DNA of 12,043 nt from Candidatus Nanohalobium sp. (GTDB taxonomy: Archaea; Nanohalarchaeota; Nanosalinia; Nanosalinales; Nanosalinaceae), in NCBI GenBank assembly GCA_042216335.1, contig JBDGTY010000034.1, positions 13,324 through 25,366 of the forward strand, read 5' to 3'. Shown one piece after another: positions 531 through 12,043 of this stretch. The notes under the pieces were generated by a model. It made no database searches and was not told where the DNA came from. It worked only from the letters and a program-made list of their open reading frames with translations. Each line of letters opens with the position of its first letter. Within the stretch, counting starts at the first letter, position 1. A program made the position numbers and the translations under genes.

Positions 531-647
531 ATGAACCTCAAAAAGAAGGTTAATGAAGTTAGACAGGAAATGGAGCAGGAAATCGAGGAGGACATAGAGG
601 AGATAAGGAAAGCTCTTGACAGTAGAAAGCAGAAATCAAAGCCCTAA
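531..647 (+). CDS. Small hypothetical protein, 38 aa, predicted helical/coiled-coil (MNLKKKVNEVRQEMEQEIEEDIEEIRKALDSRKQKSKP)
   Basis: Absent from the ORF track; read by hand. AGGAG SD at 521-525, ATG at 531, TAA at 645-647 overlapping the TAG (644-646) of the convergent kinase gene. It fills an otherwise empty gap. Confidence 0.6.
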   Translation: MNLKKKVNEVRQEMEQEIEEDIEEIRKALDSRKQKSKP

Positions 648-1549
648 ATATTCTCGGAGAATTTCTTACTCTGTCTTTCAGCGTAGCTTACCATCTTCCG
701 TTCTTCTACTCCTTTTGAGGCTCTTTTCAGGCACCAGACGATGTTGAATAGGTGGCGGAACTTCTTGGCCCTCAGAAGTTTTTCCTCAAAGTTATCAGTT
801 ATTTCCAATTCTTCTCTGAAGGTGTTTTTCAGTGTCTCGATTTGCTGTTCTGTAAAGTCCCTCTGGGAGAGTATCACTGCCAGATCCGAGGCCTGGTTGT
901 ACTTGAACTCCGCGAACTCCCAGTCTATGAAGAAAAACGAATCGCCGGTTTTCCTGGTGCTGTTTGCAATGTCGGAGTGCATGAGAAACGGCTGATCCAG
1001 TTCAAGAGGTTCCCTGAAGGCGACTTCATCGAGCTTCTTTTCAACAAAAGCTGTCAGTTCCTTATAACCTGAGCCTCTGATTTCCTCTAGATCCCGGTAA
1101 AGGCCTTCTATCTTATCCTCTTGTTTTTCCGGTTTGATGCTGTCGTATCCGCTCTCTTCGCAGAAATCCTTGAACTGTTCAAAAGTTAAAGTGTTGATCT
1201 GTGCCAGCTGTTTGGCCCAGTTACGGAGATCGTCTTGATTGAGTTTCTCGGCCCAGACCGATTCTCGGCCGACAAATGAAACCGTGTGGATATTTTTCTG
1301 AGGGTCTAAATTTATGGATCGAGGAGCCGAATCTATCCTCTTGGCCTCCAGAAACTCCAGAACAACTCTCTCATTACGCAGTGTCTCATGTTCCTTTGCT
1401 TTTCTGGCTTTTCTCAGAACGTACTTTCCTTCATCTGATGAGAAGATATAGTTGACGTTGTTCTTGCCCTCTTCGACAGACTCTATTTCTGGTTCGGTGA
1501 ACTTATCGCTGCTGTCCAGGTACTCTCGGACCTGATTTCTCCCATCCAT
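644..1549 (-). CDS. Aminoglycoside phosphotransferase / choline-ethanolamine kinase-like family protein
   Basis: N-lobe EGKNNVNY...KYVLRK...NE; Brenner-like HSDIAN; metal-binding IDWEFA; downstream SDLA. Substrate unknown. Confidence 0.85.
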   Translation of the reverse strand: MDGRNQVREYLDSSDKFTEPEIESVEEGKNNVNYIFSSDEGKYVLRKARKAKEHETLRNERVVLEFLEAKRIDSAPRSINLDPQKNIHTVSFVGRESVWAEKLNQDDLRNWAKQLAQINTLTFEQFKDFCEESGYDSIKPEKQEDKIEGLYRDLEEIRGSGYKELTAFVEKKLDEVAFREPLELDQPFLMHSDIANSTRKTGDSFFFIDWEFAEFKYNQASDLAVILSQRDFTEQQIETLKNTFREELEITDNFEEKLLRAKKFRHLFNIVWCLKRASKGVEERKMVSYAERQSKKFSENI

Positions 1550-1617: not shown

Positions 1618-2103
1618 ATGTCAGAACACGTTGAACGTACTTTTGTTGCATTGAAGCCTGACGCAGTCAAGAGAGGGCTCGTTGGAGAGATCACGCAGCG
1701 TTTCGAGGACGCAGGATTCAAAATCTGTGGGATGAAGATGATCCAGGCGACCGATCAGCTCCTGGAGCAGCACTACGAGGAGCATGTCGACAAGCCTTTC
1801 TACGATGGGCTCGCCGAGTTCATGAAGAGCGGGCCTATCGTTGCCATGGTACTAGAGGGGGTTCATGCAGCGGAGAACCTGCGGAAGATCGTGGGGGATA
1901 CGGATGCTTCAGAGGCACATCCAGCCACGATCAGAGGGCGCTACGGCCACATGTCGATGGAGCACGCCGACGACGCAGGAAGACTCTACAAGAACCTGGT
2001 CCACGCATCAGAACCAGAGGAAGCGGAAAAAGAGATCGAGATCTGGTTCAGTGAAGACGAACTCCACGACTACACCCATACAGAGGAAGAGGAAGTAAGG
2101 TAG
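1618..2103 (+). CDS. ndk: Nucleoside diphosphate kinase
   Basis: ERTFVALKPDAVKRGLVGEI, HYEEHVDKPFY, SGPIVAMVLEG, TIRG, and the catalytic His motif NLVHAS. Confidence 0.98.
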   Translation: MSEHVERTFVALKPDAVKRGLVGEITQRFEDAGFKICGMKMIQATDQLLEQHYEEHVDKPFYDGLAEFMKSGPIVAMVLEGVHAAENLRKIVGDTDASEAHPATIRGRYGHMSMEHADDAGRLYKNLVHASEPEEAEKEIEIWFSEDELHDYTHTEEEEVR

Positions 2104-3246: not shown

Positions 3247-4884
3247 TTATTTCAATTCTCTGAGTTTTTCAAGATCCAGTTCAAAGGCCGAAACAGGTTT
3301 CTCAAGCTCCCAGTTATCCAGCACTTCTCCTGAGACCTCCCCTATGTATCCAACAGATTCTCCATTTAGGTAAACTTCTCCAGAACGGGCTGGTTTGAGG
3401 AATGGCCTTGAACCCTTATGTACTGAAAGTTCTATCCCCAAATCCCTTTCTAGGACTTGAAGTATTTCCCTGGCATCCGTGAAGTCTACATCTCCGGTTT
3501 CGACATATACTGCTTTTCTCCTGTTAGAAGCTCCTTCAGGTGTATCGTCCAGCAGCGTCACGTCTGCTGTTTCAAAGAAGCTCTGAGGGTAAGCATTGTG
3601 TTTGTTTGTGTTAAGTACTTTCAGCATTGACGGGAGCAGCCTGATTCTTGTAGCAGATCTTTCCTCGGAAACCGTATTCTTCAGCGTAGGAATCTCCTCC
3701 TCCACTTTCATCATATCTAGCTGCTTCTCCTTACTTGTAAGCACCCTGGTATTCGTCTCCGTTGCTCCTGAGCGGAGCAAAATGTCTCTTACAAGATCGG
3801 AGAACTGTTCGATCGGTTGCTGTTCTGCCGCCTGATCAACTTCGGGTATCTCAGGTTCTATCTTGTCGTATCCCTGTGCGATCACTACTTCTTCAATCAG
3901 GTCATACTGGTGCATCATCACATCCCTGTACGCCGGAACCTCTACATTTACCGTACCATCTTCGATTTCTGCGCCCAGCCGCATCTTCTTCAAATTCCTG
4001 ACAACCTGTTCATCGCTAATTTCCAATCCTGAGACCTTTCGCAGGTACTTAGGATCAAGCTCCATCACTCTTGGAGTCAGATCAGGCATATTCTCTCCAT
4101 CCACTTCTACAGATTCTATATCGCCTCCTCTCTCCGCAAGCGTCGTAGCCACTATATTCAATGCTTTTTTCACTGTTTCTTCATCGGTGCCTGTAACATC
4201 TATGAATATATCAGTAGTTCCAGAATGGACCTCAGTCAACTGATTGTTTATTATAGGCGGGAAGCTCAGGACCTGATCCTCGGAATCAATGATTACGGGG
4301 TATTCATCGTGTTCTTCAAGGATCCATGAGTACTTCTGTCCTTTCTCATGTTCCTCCAGGATTTGTCCAAGGTTTAGTTCATCCTCGTGTTCTAGCGGCT
4401 GGAAACTTACTTCCTCGGGTTCCACCGCCCTGTATGTGAAAGGAGGAGTTATGTTCGAGAGATCGTGGAGGCCTATCGCCAGTTTTTCTCTCTGACGCCC
4501 CATCGATTCATGCAGCTTCTCCTGTAGCTGGATAAGACCGTTGATACCTGCCTCATCAAGCTCAAGATTCCTGACAACCGCACAGCCGATATGCGGCCTA
4601 ACTTTCTCTACAGAGGAATCTTTCTCAACCTTGATAATGCCTTCCTGGGCCTCATACTCCCTGAGGCCTGTCTCGATTTCGAAGAAACCTCTGTAAGCTC
4701 TGGCAAGGCCCTCTACTGAAAGAAGGTCTGGTCTGTTGGGATATACCTCAACCTGGCACTTGTCATCGTCCACCCCATGCCAGTGGACACCCATCATCGA
4801 TGCATCCTCCATAAGCTCTTCCTCAGTAAATTCTCTTCCTGTCAGTTCCTCAAAGTCGTGTTTATTGATCTCGATGTTTGGCAT
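3247..4884 (-). CDS. pheT: Phenylalanine--tRNA ligase beta subunit (archaeal type)
   Basis: PNRPDLLSVEGLAR, QLQEKLH...AIGLHD, LSFPPIIN and DLIEEV motifs; 545 aa. SD GAGGTGA overlaps the pheS stop. Confidence 0.96.
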   Translation of the reverse strand: MPNIEINKHDFEELTGREFTEEELMEDASMMGVHWHGVDDDKCQVEVYPNRPDLLSVEGLARAYRGFFEIETGLREYEAQEGIIKVEKDSSVEKVRPHIGCAVVRNLELDEAGINGLIQLQEKLHESMGRQREKLAIGLHDLSNITPPFTYRAVEPEEVSFQPLEHEDELNLGQILEEHEKGQKYSWILEEHDEYPVIIDSEDQVLSFPPIINNQLTEVHSGTTDIFIDVTGTDEETVKKALNIVATTLAERGGDIESVEVDGENMPDLTPRVMELDPKYLRKVSGLEISDEQVVRNLKKMRLGAEIEDGTVNVEVPAYRDVMMHQYDLIEEVVIAQGYDKIEPEIPEVDQAAEQQPIEQFSDLVRDILLRSGATETNTRVLTSKEKQLDMMKVEEEIPTLKNTVSEERSATRIRLLPSMLKVLNTNKHNAYPQSFFETADVTLLDDTPEGASNRRKAVYVETGDVDFTDAREILQVLERDLGIELSVHKGSRPFLKPARSGEVYLNGESVGYIGEVSGEVLDNWELEKPVSAFELDLEKLRELK

Positions 4885-4895
4885 TTTTTCTCACC

Positions 4896-6278
4896 TCATG
4901 GTCTCCATACCGGTATCTCCTGGAGATTTTCGATATCGTTCCTGTAGACGTTCCTGGCATCAGAGAGTCCAGCGGCCATCGCTCCTATCCTCGCTATTCC
5001 AAGCCCCCATGCCAGGACCGTGGCTTCAACACCGAGCAGTGGCTCAACTACCTCTGGCCGGAACAGGCCTGCTCCCCCCATTCCAAGCCATTCTTCCTCT
5101 TCCTCGTCCCATACCTGGATCTCTGTACTCATCTCGGTGTACGGATAGTAGGTCGGAATTAGGCGGAACTCGTCGTAACCCATCTTCTCAAAGAACTCTG
5201 AGAGATAACCTTTCAGATGGGCGAATCCCAGATCCTCTCCGACCACGATCCCCTCTGCCTGTTCGAAGTCAGCAGTATGCGTCCTGTCAACTGTTTCATT
5301 CCTGAATGCGTGCGAAATGATGAAGTACTTTGCTGGGAGATCGTCTTCATCCAGTTCAATCAACTTCTTTGCGGATACGTCAGTGGTGTGCGTCCTCAGT
5401 ATGTTTTTACCTGCCAGTTCTTCGGACCAGTCATACTGCCATCCCTGGCTACCGGTTTCGCCACCAGATTCATGCGCCTCTTTGATCCTGTCCACATAGT
5501 CCCCATATCTTGCAAGGTCGGTTCTCTCAGGGTTCTCCATGTAGAAGGTATCCTGTAGATCCTGAGCCGGATGGTCCTGAGGTATATACAGCGCGTCGAA
5601 ACACATGATGCCTGGTGTAACAAAATCTCCGCGCATCTCGCTGAAACCCATCTCAAGCCATACCTGACGTGCATAATCCTTTGCAGCCTTGAAGAAATGC
5701 TTTTTACCTGTTCTCGGAGTCTTTGCCTGGGCCTCGACGTTGAAGTCCTCTTCGATTTCCTCCAGATCAGTTTCCTTTCCTTTCTCGGTCAGCTTCAGGA
5801 TCTTCGTCTTCTCCTCCTTCGTCTCTACAAGGCCTCTGCCCTGAAGTTCCTCGTCGAACATTTCGTTCTCCAGTTTATCCTTTACTGGGTCGATGTCTAC
5901 TTCTTCTCCTTCGTCAGTAAGCGAGGCCTGTCCGTCGCTGATGTATATCCAGCCCTTCTCCCTGGCCTTTCCGATTCCGACACTGTTATCTATCTCGGAG
6001 ACAGGTTTGACACCGGAATCAAGCTCCTGGACGATCTGGTACTCGGGAGAACCTTCTTCAAGGACTTTTTCCCCCTGCTCAGTGGTCGTGTAGCTTATCT
6101 CTTCCTCTTCTTCCATTTCAGCCAGGCCTTCCTCCTCAAGTTCGAGAAACGCTCTGTTGACCATCGACTGGTCGAAGCCTTTCTCCTCGAATTCCTCGAC
6201 CTTCATCTCCGGGTTTTCCTGGAGGATTTCAAGTACTTGCCTGGCCTGACTCGAGAGTTTCACACCTTTCAGATTCAA
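4896..6278 (-). CDS. pheS: Phenylalanine--tRNA ligase alpha subunit (archaeal type, N-terminal wHTH extension)
   Basis: FDAL..PQDHPA..QDTFY, LRTHTT, FRNETVDRTH, GAGLFRPE and AWGLG motifs. Start is TTG 6278 or GTG 6263; the latter has TTATTTAAG 23-31 nt upstream. Confidence 0.95.
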   Translation of the reverse strand: MNLKGVKLSSQARQVLEILQENPEMKVEEFEEKGFDQSMVNRAFLELEEEGLAEMEEEEEISYTTTEQGEKVLEEGSPEYQIVQELDSGVKPVSEIDNSVGIGKAREKGWIYISDGQASLTDEGEEVDIDPVKDKLENEMFDEELQGRGLVETKEEKTKILKLTEKGKETDLEEIEEDFNVEAQAKTPRTGKKHFFKAAKDYARQVWLEMGFSEMRGDFVTPGIMCFDALYIPQDHPAQDLQDTFYMENPERTDLARYGDYVDRIKEAHESGGETGSQGWQYDWSEELAGKNILRTHTTDVSAKKLIELDEDDLPAKYFIISHAFRNETVDRTHTADFEQAEGIVVGEDLGFAHLKGYLSEFFEKMGYDEFRLIPTYYPYTEMSTEIQVWDEEEEEWLGMGGAGLFRPEVVEPLLGVEATVLAWGLGIARIGAMAAGLSDARNVYRNDIENLQEIPVWRP

Positions 6279-6286
6279 AGGGAATC

Positions 6287-7003
6287 TTAAATAATTCCAG
6301 TCTCCAGCGAAGCACCAACGAAGATGCAGCCGACACCGGCCAGAACCAGTATCACAAGGTTTCTCCAGGTGTCTCTATCGAAATGCTCCCTGTAGACTGC
6401 GGCCGAGATCAGGGAACCCGATACTCCGGCAATGATGAAACCAGTCATCTCGAACGCTGCGTGAGGAAAGTACAGAAGTGGAGTAGATTTCTTCAAACCC
6501 TGGAACTTCATCATCAGTTCGGCGAAGAACTTGCCCATGACCGAGGCGTTCCAGACAAGGATGAAAGATCCGGCGGAACCGAAGATAGCCGAGACCGCCA
6601 GTATACCGGTGAAAACTATCAGGTTATTGAATAGCACCTGCGTAAACAGCCCGGAGACGACTGCGTTGCCAGAAAAACCTGCGACCTCTGCCTGGAGAGC
6701 GAAAACTTCCGGATTAGCCATCGAAAGCATCGTGAAACCGAAGACCTGCCCAGCGAACAGCGCAGCATACAGCGAGACCTCCTCGACATAGGACTGATCG
6801 TCACCGTCCTCATCCTCCAAGAACTTCGTGGTTAACGGGTACACGAGAGGAAGCGACGCGAAAACTACTGACAGAACCGCCGACTGCCTTGGAAAAAGTG
6901 TCGTGGCCGCGAAGAAGCCGGCTACGGAGGCAGCCAGACCCAGTAAAAACAGCAGAGGATAGTTGTCAGTGTGCTCCTCCCTCAGGATCAGTTCCGGCAG
7001 CAT
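6287..7003 (-). CDS. Stage II sporulation protein M (SpoIIM/DUF95) family multi-pass membrane protein
   Basis: About 6-7 hydrophobic segments; LFNNLIV, ILVWNA..G, PHAAFE..G..IAG and terminal GASLET motifs. Confidence 0.85.
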   Translation of the reverse strand: MLPELILREEHTDNYPLLFLLGLAASVAGFFAATTLFPRQSAVLSVVFASLPLVYPLTTKFLEDEDGDDQSYVEEVSLYAALFAGQVFGFTMLSMANPEVFALQAEVAGFSGNAVVSGLFTQVLFNNLIVFTGILAVSAIFGSAGSFILVWNASVMGKFFAELMMKFQGLKKSTPLLYFPHAAFEMTGFIIAGVSGSLISAAVYREHFDRDTWRNLVILVLAGVGCIFVGASLETGII

Positions 7004-7021
7004 AAAGACAAGATGATGGAG

Positions 7022-7037
7022 ACTGGTTTAAACCAGT
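7022..7037. promoter_or_regulatory. 16-bp perfect palindrome centred on a TATA-like box
   Basis: ACTGGTTTAAACCAGT; the TTTAAA core (7027-7032) is 24-29 nt upstream of ATG 7003. Confidence 0.55.
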
Positions 7038-7040
7038 TTT

Positions 7041-8144
7041 TCAGATATCGAAGTCGAAGTTCTCCTCGATGTACTGCTCGACCTCTTCCTCGGCCTCTTC
7101 CCTTTTTCTCTGGTGTTCGGTCAGGAATTCCTCGATCTTCTCCTTGGCGATCTGCTTCAGCTCTCCGGAAAGCATCTCACCCGAGGCGTATTCCTGACGG
7201 ATCCTCTCCAGTTCGTCGTCGTCCTTGATAAGATGGAACGCCAGGAGTTCAAAGACCATGTCCTCTTCTACGTCGGCGCCTTTCTCCCTGTGCTCTTCCA
7301 GAGAGTCTTTTCCTCCGGTCTTGGCCTGGTCGATTTTCTCTTTGGCTTCCTCTACCGAGTCATTGAGGGCTATGTAGCTCTTCGGTTTGCTGCTCGACAT
7401 CTTTCCTCCCTGAAGCCCTCTCATGAACCTGTTATACGTGGAGGCTGGCTTGGTGAAGTCGAAGTCCCTGTGTTTCCTCGCTACCTCCCTTGTCAACCTG
7501 ATGTGTGGATCCTGATCTATCCCTACAGGAACGACCGTCGGTTTTGATCCACCGTTCTCCGGGAACTGTGGCCTGAGGATGTCGGCGTACTGGACCTGTG
7601 CCGAGGACATCTTCCCAGGGTCGGCGTTGCCATAGGTCGCCTCCATCTCGTTCTGTGTGAGGTACCGGCCGAACATGGCTGCCCTGGCCAGGTGGTCGTT
7701 TCCGGCCTTGCTCTGGAAGTAGAAGTCGGTTTTATCCAGGTCGATGCCGAGAGCGACATAGTTTTTCAGGTACTCCTCGACAACCAATTTCCTGGCCTCA
7801 TCCAGGGAGATGTCTCTGGTATTGTATGACTCTATATCAGCAGCTGTCAATGTTATCTGGGCACCCATGTCCTGGAACATCTTCATCTGATCGACCACGA
7901 CCTTGTGGCCCAGATGAGCCTCACCGGAGGGCATGATACCAGTTATCGCCGCGACCTCTCCGCCGTCCTGGAGCGTGTCGAGGTACTCTTCCATACCCCG
8001 GTGTCCGAATACGATACCTCTCCGGATGTATCTGTGATCAGGAAACTTGTCTTCTATTTCTTCTATCGGTTCGATTCCGAACTCTTCCATCTTTTCCTCA
8101 ACGTTTCCTATCTCGACATCGCCCCACGGATCGTTCTCTGGCAT
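7041..8144 (-). CDS. trpS: Tryptophan--tRNA ligase (archaeal type)
   Basis: DPWG N-terminus, TGIMPSG..HLGH (HIGH), Q.ADIL, GIDQDPH, KMSSS and AKTGG motifs; GAGGT SD upstream. Confidence 0.97.
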   Translation of the reverse strand: MPENDPWGDVEIGNVEEKMEEFGIEPIEEIEDKFPDHRYIRRGIVFGHRGMEEYLDTLQDGGEVAAITGIMPSGEAHLGHKVVVDQMKMFQDMGAQITLTAADIESYNTRDISLDEARKLVVEEYLKNYVALGIDLDKTDFYFQSKAGNDHLARAAMFGRYLTQNEMEATYGNADPGKMSSAQVQYADILRPQFPENGGSKPTVVPVGIDQDPHIRLTREVARKHRDFDFTKPASTYNRFMRGLQGGKMSSSKPKSYIALNDSVEEAKEKIDQAKTGGKDSLEEHREKGADVEEDMVFELLAFHLIKDDDELERIRQEYASGEMLSGELKQIAKEKIEEFLTEHQRKREEAEEEVEQYIEENFDFDI

Positions 8145-8145
8145 C

Positions 8146-8514
8146 TTAGTTTACCTCTTGTTCAAGTGCTTCTTCCGGATTTTCAAATAGTTCGTGGTCT
8201 TCGACCACCTTTTCAGAAGAGCGGATGAGATCTCCCGAATCCTCATATAGCACGGCCCGGAAATCGCCTGTGTACCGGCTTACAGCTACTTCTGTTTCAT
8301 AGCCCTCGAGGAATTCAGGCTGCTCGGCTTCGTTCAGTCTCACCGCCTCTACAGCGTTCTCGTTCAGAAAGTCTTCCAGAGAAGACTCACCATCAAATGT
8401 CGAATAGACCAGTTTATCACCTACCTCATGGTATACTGTAGCATATGCCGATGCGAATTCGTTTCCTGGAAGCGAGTTACGTTCACTCGAGCCGAGATTT
8501 CTCCTATCAGTCAT
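8146..8514 (-). CDS. Hypothetical acidic protein (122 aa) within the trp cluster
   Basis: ATGA overlap with the trpA stop and a 1-nt gap to the trpS start; host-like acidic composition. No motif recognised. Confidence 0.7.
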   Translation of the reverse strand: MTDRRNLGSSERNSLPGNEFASAYATVYHEVGDKLVYSTFDGESSLEDFLNENAVEAVRLNEAEQPEFLEGYETEVAVSRYTGDFRAVLYEDSGDLIRSSEKVVEDHELFENPEEALEQEVN

Positions 8515-9275
8515 TCTTTCCCACCTTCTATTCCTGCTTTGAGCTGTTCAGCAAGTTTTTCCAGACCTTCCAGACCTCCTTCTCTGTATGCATCGATCAA
8601 AGCGCTTCCCACTATGACACCGTCTGCTCCTGCATCGACAGCAGCCTCCGCATGCTCTCTGCTGGAGACACCGAAGCCTATGGCCCTGGGCACGTCCATC
8701 TTGGATGTTCTCTGTATCAGTTTTTCTGCTTTTTCTGCAAAGTCGTTTCTGGCGCCCGTGGTGCCTTTGACAGAGACAAGATACGCGAATCCTTCCGTCA
8801 TCTCGTTGATCTCTTCCATCCGTTCCTCAGGAGTGTTCTGGGCCACGAGGAAGATGGAATCGAGTTCCGTGTCGATATCTTCCATTTCTTTCCTGTACTC
8901 TTCCGGTGGGAGGTCAGGGACTATCAGGCCTTCTACTTCTGCGTCCTCCGCGTCTCTGATGAACTTCTCGTAGCCGTATGCCCTCAGCGTGTTGACGTAG
9001 GCCATAAGGACTATCGGAGTCTCAGTGAATTCCGAGGCTATATCGAAGGCGTCCTCTGTTTTGAAGCCGTTGTCCAGTGCTTCCTGATCCGCTTCCATGA
9101 TTGTCGGGCCGTCAGCCATCGGATCACTGAACGGGATTCCGAGTTCTATGATGTCGGCACCCGAGTCGATAAGAGTTTCTATAATTTTCCCGGATTTTTC
9201 CTTTGTCGGATATCCTGCCACCGTGAACGGCATGAACGCGTTTCCGTCCTCGAATACCTCTTCAATTGAAGTCAA
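8511..9275 (-). CDS. trpA: Tryptophan synthase alpha subunit
   Basis: [17 protein letters not shown] (catalytic Glu/Asp), VPDLP, YLVS.KGTTG, IGFGV and [11 protein letters not shown] start with a GGAGGTG SD inside trpB; 14-nt overlap with trpB. Confidence 0.97.
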
Positions 9276-10416
9276 GGCTGTCCACCTCCGCGACAGTGTG
9301 CATGTCCTTGTCCCCCCTTCCTGAAAGGTTGATTATCATGGAGTCGTGTTCATCGGCCATTTCCTTGGCGAGCGCGACTGCGTGAGCTGATTCGAGCGCT
9401 GGCAGTATACCTTCCGTCTCGGACAGGTCGTTGAAGGCCTCCATGACCTCTTCGTCGCCGACGGCGTAGTACTCAGCTCTTTCAAGTTCGTGAAGCACAG
9501 CGTGCTGTGGGCCGACACCGGTGTAGTCGAGGCCCGCGGATATGGAGCTGGTTTCTCCGATGTTGCCCTGTTCGTCCTGTATGAAGTAGGATTTGAATCC
9601 CTGGAAGATGCCGACCTCTCCCTTTGAGAGTGATGCGCCGTGGCCGTTCTCGTCTCCGCCTGCTTCTGCACCGTAGAAGTCGACTTCGTCGTCTTCCATA
9701 AACTCGCTGAAAAGGCCGATGGCATTGCTGCCTCCGCCGACACATGCTACCAGTGCATCCGGTAGCTCTCCCTCTTTCTCAATGAACTGCTCCCGAGCTT
9801 CTTCTCCGGTCACCGAGTGGAAGTACTTCACCATCTCAGGAAATGGCTCAGGGCCGACAGTAGATCCCAGAAGGTAGTGAGAGCTGTCAGAGGTCGAGAT
9901 GTAGTCCTGCATAGCCTCTGTAACGGCATCTTTCAAGGTCTGAGATCCTTTTTCGACAGGAGTGACTTCCGCCCCGCACTTCTCCATCCTGAGGGCGTTC
10001 ATCTTCTGCCTCTCGACATCCCTGGCACCCATGTAGACCTCTACATCGAGGTCGAAGTAGGCTCCTGCCATCGCAGAGGCGATACCGTGCTGGCCGGCAC
10101 CTGTCTCCACGACGAGGCGTTCCTTGCCCATCCTCTCTGCGAGCATGGCCTGTCCAAGCGTGTTGTTTATCTTGTGGGCTCCGCCGTGAAGCATGTCCTC
10201 CCTTTTCAGGTAGATCTTGCAGCCATACTTTTCCGAAAGGTTCTCAGCATGGTACAGGTTGGTCGGCCTCCCAGCATACTCCCTCAGATGCTGCCTGAAC
10301 TCCTGCTGGAACTCTTCGTCTTTCTTTGCTTTTTCGAACTCTTGCTGAAGTTCTTCCAGCACCGGCACAAGCAGTTCCGGTACGTACTGTCCTCCGAAGT
10401 CGTGTTTGGTTTCCAT
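9262..10416 (-). CDS. trpB: Tryptophan synthase beta subunit (TrpB1 type)
   Basis: [23 protein letters not shown] (PLP Lys), [32 protein letters not shown] and NLSGRGDKD. Confidence 0.98.
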
Positions 10417-10426
10417 AGTATCCTTT

Positions 10427-11761
10427 TCAGTCCTCCTGTCGCGTCCTGTAGGTTTTCATGTACTCCTCGAATTTTTCGTCGTATAGCTCCTGATTCTCTC
10501 CCGGCTCGTACTCCTTCGCAGTCTTCACCATCCGGTTCTCTGCTTCCTCCAGACTGTCGAAAACCCCGTTCGATGTCGCCGCAAGTATAGCAGCGCCGAG
10601 CGCCGATGTTTCGTCCACCTCCAGTTTTCTGACGGTTTCTCCGAGCACGTCGGCTTTGATCCGGTTGCGGAGACCGTTCCTCGAGCGCCCTCCACTTATC
10701 ACCAGGAATTTCAGGTCGTTTCCGAACCTTTCAAGCTGCTGCCGTATGTAGTATGCCTCCGCCTCGACGAACGACCTTGCAAGTTCCTCTTTCCCCTGAC
10801 TCAGTCCGAGACCTGTTATGGCTCCCTTTCTTTCCGGATGCTTCCTTTCCCCGTCCAAGAACGGAGCGGTGATCGGAGTTTCTTCAGGCTCTGCTTCCTT
10901 AATCATCCGATTTACTTCGGTGTAGTCGATGTCGAAAAGGTCCTTCATCCATTCCTCCGCGGATGCAGCAGCTTCTCCTCCCAGGCAGAGCTCTTTGCCA
11001 TCTCTGAAGTACGGTTTGTTGCCTTCCGAGGCGATCTGTGCCACTACCGTGGTTGTCCCTGCTATGGCCATGGCCTCACCTTCCCTGTAAAGGCCTGAGC
11101 CGACAGCGCTGCATATGGCATCCCACGGACCTACAACTACCGGCACCTCGCTATCGACAGAGTCTATGAAGCTCTCACTGAGCTTTCCCGTCTTTTCCCG
11201 GAAGCTGGCAGGTTCAGGGAACAGCTCCGTGTCCATACCGTGTTGCCGGCATCTTTCCTCCAGTTCCTGCTGCGGGAAGCCGTAGTTGTTCCTCCTGAGA
11301 TTGCCTGTCATCCTGTAGGCGAGGTAGTCGCGGAAATCCACGACCTTATCCAGCTCTTCAGCTATCCCAGGTCGCTGCTCTTCTATCCACTCGGTGTTCT
11401 TGAAAATCATTGTTTTGCCCCAGTTGAGCTCCGGGAACTCCTCTTCTACTTCTTCGCTCCGGGAGTCCATGTAGGTCAGTATGGCTGGCGCTAAAGGCTT
11501 ATTTTCGGAGTCGAGCGGCAGGACGCCGCGGCCGAACCCGGTAACGCCTACAGCATCTACCTCCGAGAAGTCCACTTCCTTTGCCAGCCTGCTCAGAGCC
11601 TCCCTGACAGCTTCTACCAGCTTCTCGGCACTGTGCTCCGCATATCCCTCCTCAGGCCGCTCAACCCCGTAACTTTCAGTTTCACACGCAATCTCAGCAC
11701 CCTCACTGCTGAAAACCACTGCTTTGCAGCTCCTGGTTCCGACGTCGATACCTACCAGCAT
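10427..11761 (-). CDS. FGGY-family carbohydrate kinase (xylulokinase/ribulokinase-like), substrate unknown
   Basis: [20 protein letters not shown], catalytic-region GPWD, AGTT, PFLDGER, SGG.SRN, IKADV and [16 protein letters not shown] at the trpC 3' end. Confidence 0.92.
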
Positions 11762-11764
11762 AAC

Positions 11765-12043
11765 CTAGCTCTCACCTGCTCCTGCGAACTTTTCGACATT
11801 TTCCTCTACATCTCCGTCCATTATGGCAGTGCCTATAAGCATGGCATCAGCTCCAGCGTCCAGCATCCGTTCTGCATCCTCAACCGTTTTTATACCGCTC
11901 TCAGCGACCAGTCTGATGTTCTCGGGAGCTTCTTCCGCCACCTCTTCAAACGTATCCAGATTGACTTCAAGCTTTGTCAGATCCCGGTTGTTGACTCCGA
12001 TGATTTCGGCTTCTGCATCGACAGCTTCTTCCATTTCCTCTTC
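11765..12043 (-). CDS. trpC: Indole-3-glycerol phosphate synthase, C-terminal part (5' end outside window)
   Basis: [15 protein letters not shown] and [10 protein letters not shown]. The frame stays open to the window edge, so ATG 12034 is internal. Confidence 0.95.

Follow-up and report, generated by a model that had tools for sequence, protein, structure and literature searches.

A divergent FGGY-family kinase gene embedded between trpC and trpB of a nanohaloarchaeon: a candidate enzyme of tryptophan biosynthesis

A gene for a kinase of the FGGY family lies between trpC and trpB in Candidatus Nanohalobium sp. (GenBank assembly GCA_042216335.1), and the question that it raises is what a sugar kinase might do among the genes for tryptophan synthesis. 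The window analysed here is the whole 12,043-nucleotide stretch at positions 13,324 to 25,366 (forward strand) of contig JBDGTY010000034.1, and its source genome is designated G000. We know of no kinase in the five-step route from chorismate to tryptophan, and of no variant of the route that bypasses phosphoribosyl pyrophosphate (PRPP), TrpD and TrpF. A full-text literature search returned nothing relevant on FGGY or other kinases in trp operons, or on a kinase for 1-(2-carboxyphenylamino)-1-deoxy-D-ribulose (CdR), the dephospho form of the TrpC substrate CdRP. Passages of two papers on nanohaloarchaeal metabolism (PMC10266531, PMC13195033) mention aromatic amino-acid genes and not this cluster, though the supplementary tables may list such genes. 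A preliminary description of the locus had proposed a salvage or bypass enzyme for tryptophan precursors. The evidence below makes a trp-dedicated kinase of some kind probable.

The kinase gene is closely packed between its neighbours. The trpC stop codon (11765-11767) and the kinase ATG (11759-11761) are separated by 3 nt, the kinase stop codon (10427-10429) and the trpB ATG, which ends at 10416, by 10 nt, and the trpB and trpA reading frames share 14 nt. A Shine-Dalgarno-like GGAG/GGTGA stretch is found within trpC, 9-20 nt 5′ of the kinase ATG. All of this agrees with the preliminary description, except that the feature end given there, 11767, takes in the trpC stop codon, the kinase gene itself extending to 11761. 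The window is bounded by a run of 100 N in the scaffold, and the first two thirds of trpC are thus lost; an independent Logan contig of the probable source run spans 10159-12043 with 0 differences. The embedded FGGY kinase is real and chance placement is excluded, because all three FGGY genes detected in 70 genomes of the phylum are directly upstream of trpB.

The survey set of 70 genomes includes 50 that belong to family f1, and 37 of these were examined for TrpA. A scan with a profile of the kinase clade detected FGGY proteins in G000, G005 and G016, the latter two from other genera, with no other FGGY at E≤1e-10. The same profile finds E. coli XylB at 3.5e-40, but this E-value is relative to the PDB sequence library. 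TrpC (PF00218) was detected in exactly the FGGY-bearing three of the 70 genomes, and TrpF in G016 only. PRPP synthetase (Prs) gave matches at E≤1e-15 in 6 of the 70, of which 4 exceed the cut-off, and within family f1 only in G016. A true TrpA is present in six of the family f1 genomes examined (G000, G005, G016, G022, G025 and G015).

Gene orders are listed in Table 1. In all three FGGY-bearing genomes the kinase gene is followed directly by trpB and trpA, and in G005 trpC and the kinase gene overlap by 4 nt. Recurrence of the arrangement and a single kinase clade, both raised in the preliminary description, were borne out: FGGY-trpB-trpA recurs in two other genera, and a single clade (SH-aLRT 100) unites the kinases. 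The conserved place beside trp genes in different genera, together with co-occurrence with TrpC, ties the kinase to the tryptophan biosynthesis operon. G016 (89% complete) has the whole trp pathway and Prs, and TrpD, TrpE, TrpF and Prs were not found in G005 (82% complete). Three further genomes have trpB and trpA without the kinase, and G002, a congener of G000, has trpE-trpG alone. Such complementary fragments, trpEG and trpC-FGGY-trpBA, point to a division of the pathway among related symbionts.

Two further features of these loci were observed. In G016 (locus L011, contig C22), a purine phosphoribosyltransferase-like gene at 4744-5376 lies between trpA and trpD; adenine and hypoxanthine phosphoribosyltransferase models match it with 134-139 bits, under the cut-off. 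In G015 (L027, G015:C1:6000-25000, 7145-11445), trpB-trpA is flanked by two genes for proteins like tryptophanyl-tRNA synthetase (TrpRS), which are 67% and 75% identical to the TrpRS of the window. Contamination of this genome is 7%, and the duplication should be read with care.

The rest of the pathway is sparsely represented in G000, a 1.02 Mb genome in 74 contigs that is 96.2% complete and has an acidic proteome. Chorismate synthase is present, and the only indole-3-glycerol phosphate synthase is the gap-truncated trpC. No match to TrpD (PF00591), TrpF (PF00697) or TrpE (PF00425) was found in this genome, nor a PRPP synthetase over the cut-off (a single match, 22 bits against 113), an outcome in line with the preliminary description. 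HisA, a possible stand-in for TrpF, was not found there either, the His_biosynth matches being cross-matches of TrpC and TrpA and one weak match. RpiA, Rpe (PF00834), transketolase (PF00456) and a PNP-type nucleoside phosphorylase were likewise not found in G000. As far as Rpe and transketolase show, a context that uses xylulose 5-phosphate is absent from this genome; xylose isomerase and phosphoketolase were not searched. Two PfkB kinases are encoded, neither reaching an equivalog cut-off, and no substrate can be assigned to them; the best model for one is ribokinase (111.6 bits against 299.65).

TrpC itself appears to be an ordinary enzyme. The G000 protein is 62-65% identical to the indole-3-glycerol phosphate synthases of Natronomonas and Haladaptatus, and identity among G000, G005 and G016 is 57-65% (65% over 89 aa between G000 and G005). 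TrpC is thus canonical and therefore needs genuine CdRP. G+C content is 0.54-0.55 in the trp segment of the window (8500-12043) and 0.495 in the genome. Both this composition and the identity to haloarchaeal TrpC are compatible with at least trpC having been acquired from Halobacteria.

Membership of the kinase in the FGGY family is clear. Both domains pass the Pfam gathering scores, FGGY_N (PF00370) with 92.5 bits (cut-off 28.8; 4.1e-26) and FGGY_C (PF02782) with 66.9 bits (cut-off 27; 2.8e-18). The structure predicted by AlphaFold2 (pLDDT 93.6, pTM 0.92) has the two-domain, actin-like ATPase fold, and Foldseek matches it to 3ll3, 3gbt, 6k79 and 2itm with probability 1.00 and TMq 0.82-0.88. 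These matches are xylulo-, glucono- and glycerol kinases, and no FGGY subfamily stands out. The DxGT, GTT and SGG motifs are kept. Among five clade members sharing 42-81% identity, 130 of the 444 residues of the window kinase (458 alignment columns) are invariant, including D6, G8, T9 and D214 in 5/5, and the position of Asp214 corresponds in the alignment to E. coli XylB Asp233, taken to be the catalytic base. From its motifs the kinase looks active.

All NCBIfam equivalog models remain below their cut-offs. The best is XylB (TIGR01312), with 194 bits against 380.25, and NF011601 gives 94 bits against 912. GlpK (TIGR01311, 102.2 against 590.35) matches only the C-terminal third, and the ribulokinase models NF003154 (103.1 against 428) and TIGR01234 (76.8 against 583.25) only the C-terminal part. 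In the sugar loop, GFGRG takes the place of the GQMHG of XylB, and the arginine in this sugar-binding loop, Arg78 (His in XylB), is Arg in 0 of 39 other aligned FGGY proteins. Arg156, Arg157, Asn158 (Asp in 31/39) and Arg365 (Trp in 33/39) are also specific to the clade. With the equivalog models under their cut-offs, the GFGRG loop and an Arg78 unmatched in the other aligned FGGY proteins, the kinase does not qualify as a standard xylulo-, ribulo- or glycerol kinase.

One homologue shares 81% identity with the kinase, two more share 47%, and none of the others exceeds 30%. Among the 45 FGGY proteins of the tree, 8 rows make up the clade, namely the G000, G005 and G016 copies, P0002, P0003, P0004 and the acidic metagenomic proteins P0039 and P0040. 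It nests in an uncharacterised, mostly archaeal group with a common GPWDG motif. P0004 and the TrpB protein P0209, each from a JGI contig of 3102 bases, are probably from the same contig; no comparable TrpB pairing was found for P0003 (contig of 56765 bases) or P0002 (4561 bases). A metagenome scan for related loci returned only 3 FGGY loci, none with adjoining trp genes, which are too distant (24-29% identity) to be informative. The sole match in a scan of a genome collection was the contig of G005 itself, and the ESM Atlas contained generic FGGY and IMPase clusters only. Over window positions 11302-11592, short pieces of the kinase gene also occur in Logan contigs of a second study (two runs), with 14 differences over 270 bases and 9 over 203, which shows that the gene has a close relative elsewhere.

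The G016 copy (L011, 7705-8853; 382 aa) is shortened. About 65 residues of domain II are gone, and Gly replaces Arg78, which is otherwise invariant in the clade. A second shortened acidic FGGY protein, the metagenomic P0043 (400 aa), also has part of domain II gone and Gly for Arg78. The short forms of these two lineages may represent either parallel decay or a maintained subfamily with another role.

In general terms, the kinase is tied to the tryptophan genes, and specifically to TrpC, and not to pentose catabolism or PRPP supply. A tentative assignment, for which the odds fall a little short of even, is that it is a trp-dedicated kinase making CdRP from CdR and so bypassing PRPP, TrpD and TrpF. 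The kinase would then be an active, lineage-specific member of the FGGY family belonging to tryptophan synthesis rather than sugar catabolism, and would use ATP to place a phosphate on the terminal C5 hydroxyl of CdR. CdR would arise as the Amadori product of anthranilate and ribose or as leaked, dephosphorylated CdRP, and TrpC, TrpA and TrpB would convert the CdRP formed into tryptophan. The anthranilate or CdR could be drawn from outside, from a haloarchaeal host or from congeners with trpEG alone. CdR is excreted by trpC mutants, and CdRP arises chemically from anthranilate and ribose 5-phosphate. Passages of PMC3424233 report phosphorylation of 1-deoxy-D-xylulose by E. coli XylB, a precedent for an altered C1.

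Phosphorylation of CdR would be the most economical role because nothing known makes CdRP in G000 or G005, and their operon holds only a ketopentose-type kinase and an IMPase-like protein. If the kinase is most important in genomes without TrpD and TrpF, a shortened copy would be expected where both are present, as in G016. The idea of a kinase for dephospho-CdR, which goes back to the preliminary description, survives every genomic test proposed there and is partly supported: the missing trpD, trpF, trpE and prs, the synteny, the clade and the lack of an outlet for pentose phosphate all stand on its side, while CdR as the substrate is what we infer from them. Doubtful in its full extent is a route free of PRPP, TrpD and TrpF, in which anthranilate and ribose would give CdR, the FGGY protein would act as a CdR 5-kinase, the IMPase-like phosphatase would supply or edit the sugar, and the pathway would be split within a symbiotic community.

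Other roles for the kinase have to be weighed against the same observations. It might be an ordinary pentulose kinase for D-xylulose or D-ribulose, used for carbon or for ribose-phosphate supply and merely riding in the trp operon; xylulokinases are its best matches (TIGR01312, 194 bits; 2itm, 3.5e-40), JGI labels P0003 and P0004 'xylulokinase', and nanohaloarchaea have been cultivated in xylan-degrading consortia (PMC10266531). However, the score is half of the XylB cut-off, and a plain pentulose kinase would have no outlet in G000 because RpiA, Rpe and transketolase were not found. Neither Prs nor TrpD was found in the two genomes with an intact kinase, whereas the genome having both carries a shortened one, which also disfavours the fallback of the preliminary description, pentose phosphate for PRPP. 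All three copies are in trp clusters and no FGGY was detected elsewhere in the phylum; this explanation is unlikely. The evidence from the operon and from co-occurrence applies equally to a trp-linked kinase with another substrate, either indole-3-glycerol, giving the TrpA substrate, or N-ribosylanthranilate, giving phosphoribosylanthranilate (PRA). FGGY enzymes phosphorylate glycerol-like and pentose-derived terminal hydroxyls, and glycerol, xylulose and ribulose kinases are among the relatives. But an indole-3-glycerol kinase would make TrpC needless, and the genomes that have the kinase are exactly those that retain a canonical TrpC, while the three trpBA-only genomes are without the kinase, so that this variant, also put forward in the preliminary description, fits less well. 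A PRA-forming kinase would still need TrpF, found in G016 only, and substrates of this kind are quite improbable.

Two further explanations place the kinase outside a working tryptophan pathway. A role in the adjacent shikimate route of archaeal type, such as the formation of 6-deoxy-5-ketofructose 1-phosphate (DKFP) for ADH synthase and DHQ synthase II, possibly with the IMPase/FBPase-like gene, would be consistent with the aro cluster divergently upstream in G000, with aroA, aroC, aroK and aroE beside the operon in G016, and with the phosphorylation of 6-deoxy-ketohexoses at C1 by rhamnulo- and fuculokinases of the FGGY family. However, DHQ synthase II was found in 2 of the 70 genomes, G000 and G002, and G002 has the whole aro cluster without FGGY, while G005 and G016 have FGGY without DHQ synthase II. 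The DKFP kinase was rejected on these distributions, and a shikimate role is highly improbable. Alternatively, trpC and the kinase could be non-working leftovers of an eroding ancestral operon, as the patchy erosion of trp genes at one site in the family (trpEG only, trpBA only or trpC-FGGY-trpBA) and the shortened G016 copy would allow. Against this, the copies in G000 and G005 have their full length, their motifs are intact and the fold is predicted with confidence, and TrpC shows 57-65% identity across the three genomes and with haloarchaeal enzymes. Idle genes also rarely last across genera in genomes of ∼1 Mb, and a decaying relic is very unlikely.

Several points weigh against a CdR kinase. 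Only three genomes, all related, have the gene, so that one or two events could account for the co-occurrences, and two of these genomes are incomplete (G005, 82%; G016, 89%). FGGY and trp genes are also linked in G016, where a complete canonical pathway exists, and the short form, because it recurs in P0043, may be one that is retained and not in decay. In G000, neither anthranilate nor CdR could be traced to a source. The CdR-kinase model does not account for a role of the IMPase-like gene, and the ribokinase-like PfkB of G000 could provide ribose 5-phosphate that gives PRA with anthranilate non-enzymatically, without the FGGY kinase. A gene could also be hidden in the scaffold gap within trpC, though in G005 the IMPase-like gene and trpC are adjacent.

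Comparison with known systems shows what is shared and what is new. E. coli XylB (PDB 2itm) has the same two-domain FGGY fold (TMq 0.82), is the best profile match (3.5e-40) and shares DxGT and the Asp233 position, but the window kinase is only 24% identical, ∼40 residues shorter, under the TIGR01312 cut-off, has GFGRG for GQMHG and belongs to the trp operon of a genome in which neither Rpe nor transketolase was found. The nearest outgroup in the tree is the uncharacterised archaeal 'xylulokinase-like' GPWDG group (Asgard, Thermoprotei, Infirmifilum, Fervidicoccus; P0041, P0042, P0046 and others). Like the clade, it has GPWD(G/A)(I/M)C and, behind the TG motif, a short loop, but is 27-30% identical, is not acidic (pI 5.5-7.6) and is without Arg78 and the Arg-Arg-Asn at 156-158. 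The logic of the proposed reaction, in which the terminal hydroxyl of a 1-amino-1-deoxy-ketose is phosphorylated for a downstream enzyme, is that of fructoselysine 6-kinase FrlD. FrlD is an Amadori-compound kinase of the PfkB family, not FGGY, and acts in the catabolism of glycated lysine, not in biosynthesis.

For reduced, host-dependent organisms there are parallels in operon content and in pathway splitting. The trp operon of Chlamydia caviae reportedly includes accessory kynU and prsA genes that feed the canonical PRPP-dependent route; salvage or supply genes within a trp operon would be common to both, but PRPP synthetase was not found in G000. In aphids the tryptophan pathway is divided at anthranilate, with Buchnera (trpEG) on one side and Serratia symbiotica on the other (PMC4898801). 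The situation here is similar in that reduced genomes have complementary parts, trpEG in G002 and trpC-FGGY-trpBA in G000 at the same locus. The partner in the aphid split is said to keep TrpD and TrpF, whereas neither was found in G000, and the kinase is present in their stead.

An IMPase-family gene lies directly past the N gap on the same strand in G000, outside the window (Table 1). Its only orthologue in the phylum is in G005, 49% identical and in the same place; other matches are ≤35%, and a separate IMPase paralogue is found within G000. The product is far under every NCBIfam cut-off, and this divergent IMPase/FBPase-family gene is probably part of the trpC-kinase module. A 216-aa open reading frame (ORF) upstream of the G016 kinase gene was considered as a degraded IMPase-like gene or trpC and rejected, as there is no similarity. 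Further out in G000, an archaeal-type shikimate cluster (DeoC-type aldolase, DHQ synthase II, aroD, aroA, aroC) is transcribed divergently.

On the other side, TrpRS is a conserved anchor in the family, with orthologues adjoining trpBA or trpEG in G022, G025, G015 and G002. The 122-aa ORF 3′ of trpA is not homologous to a 123-aa ORF at the equivalent place in G005. Elsewhere in the window, an APH-family phosphotransferase gene (PF01636) adjoins a 161-aa ORF whose product was guessed from its sequence to be a nucleoside-diphosphate kinase.

Table 1. Features of the window and of related loci. Positions are those of the window unless a locus is named.
Feature	Location	Strand	Evidence or remark
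trpC, 3′ part (last 92 codons and stop)	11765-12043	-	PF00218 2.6e-25, model positions 168-253 of 254; NF041303 haloarchaeal TrpC 4e-36
Divergent FGGY-family kinase, 444 aa; proposed to be trp-dedicated (CdR to CdRP)	10427-11761	-	FGGY_N, FGGY_C, fold, clade
trpB, tryptophan synthase beta	9262-10416	-	TIGR00263 563.6 bits, cut-off 392.45
trpA, tryptophan synthase alpha	8511-9275	-	TIGR00262 248.6 bits; PF00290 5e-76
122-aa acidic ORF, no family; probably outside the module	8146-8514	-	No Pfam or NCBIfam match
Tryptophanyl-tRNA synthetase (TrpRS)	7041-8144	-	PF00579 6.1e-42
SpoIIM-like membrane protein, then phenylalanyl-tRNA synthetase (PheRS) alpha and beta	3′ of TrpRS in transcription order	-	Pfam and NCBIfam scans
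161-aa ORF	1618-2103	+	
APH-family phosphotransferase	644-1549	-	PF01636 3.7e-08
IMPase-family gene	G000:C28:25470-26363 (L002 471-1364)	-	
G000 and G005 gene order			IMPase-like, trpC, FGGY, trpB, trpA
G016 gene order			FGGY, trpB, trpA, purine phosphoribosyltransferase-like, trpD, trpF, trpE, trpG, trpC
G022, G025 and G015 gene order			Only trpB, trpA next to TrpRS; without kinase
G002 (congener of G000)	L035 (G002:C3:32000-50000), 6477-9813		Only trpE-trpG, between aro cluster and TrpRS

If the kinase does make CdRP, it would represent a new enzyme activity in the FGGY family and a new branch of a textbook pathway. It would also explain the use of TrpC by a host-dependent archaeon in which no PRPP synthetase was found. 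The tryptophan pathway would then be cut into complementary pieces among closely related DPANN genomes, with trpEG in one, trpBA in others and trpC-kinase-trpBA in the lineage described here.

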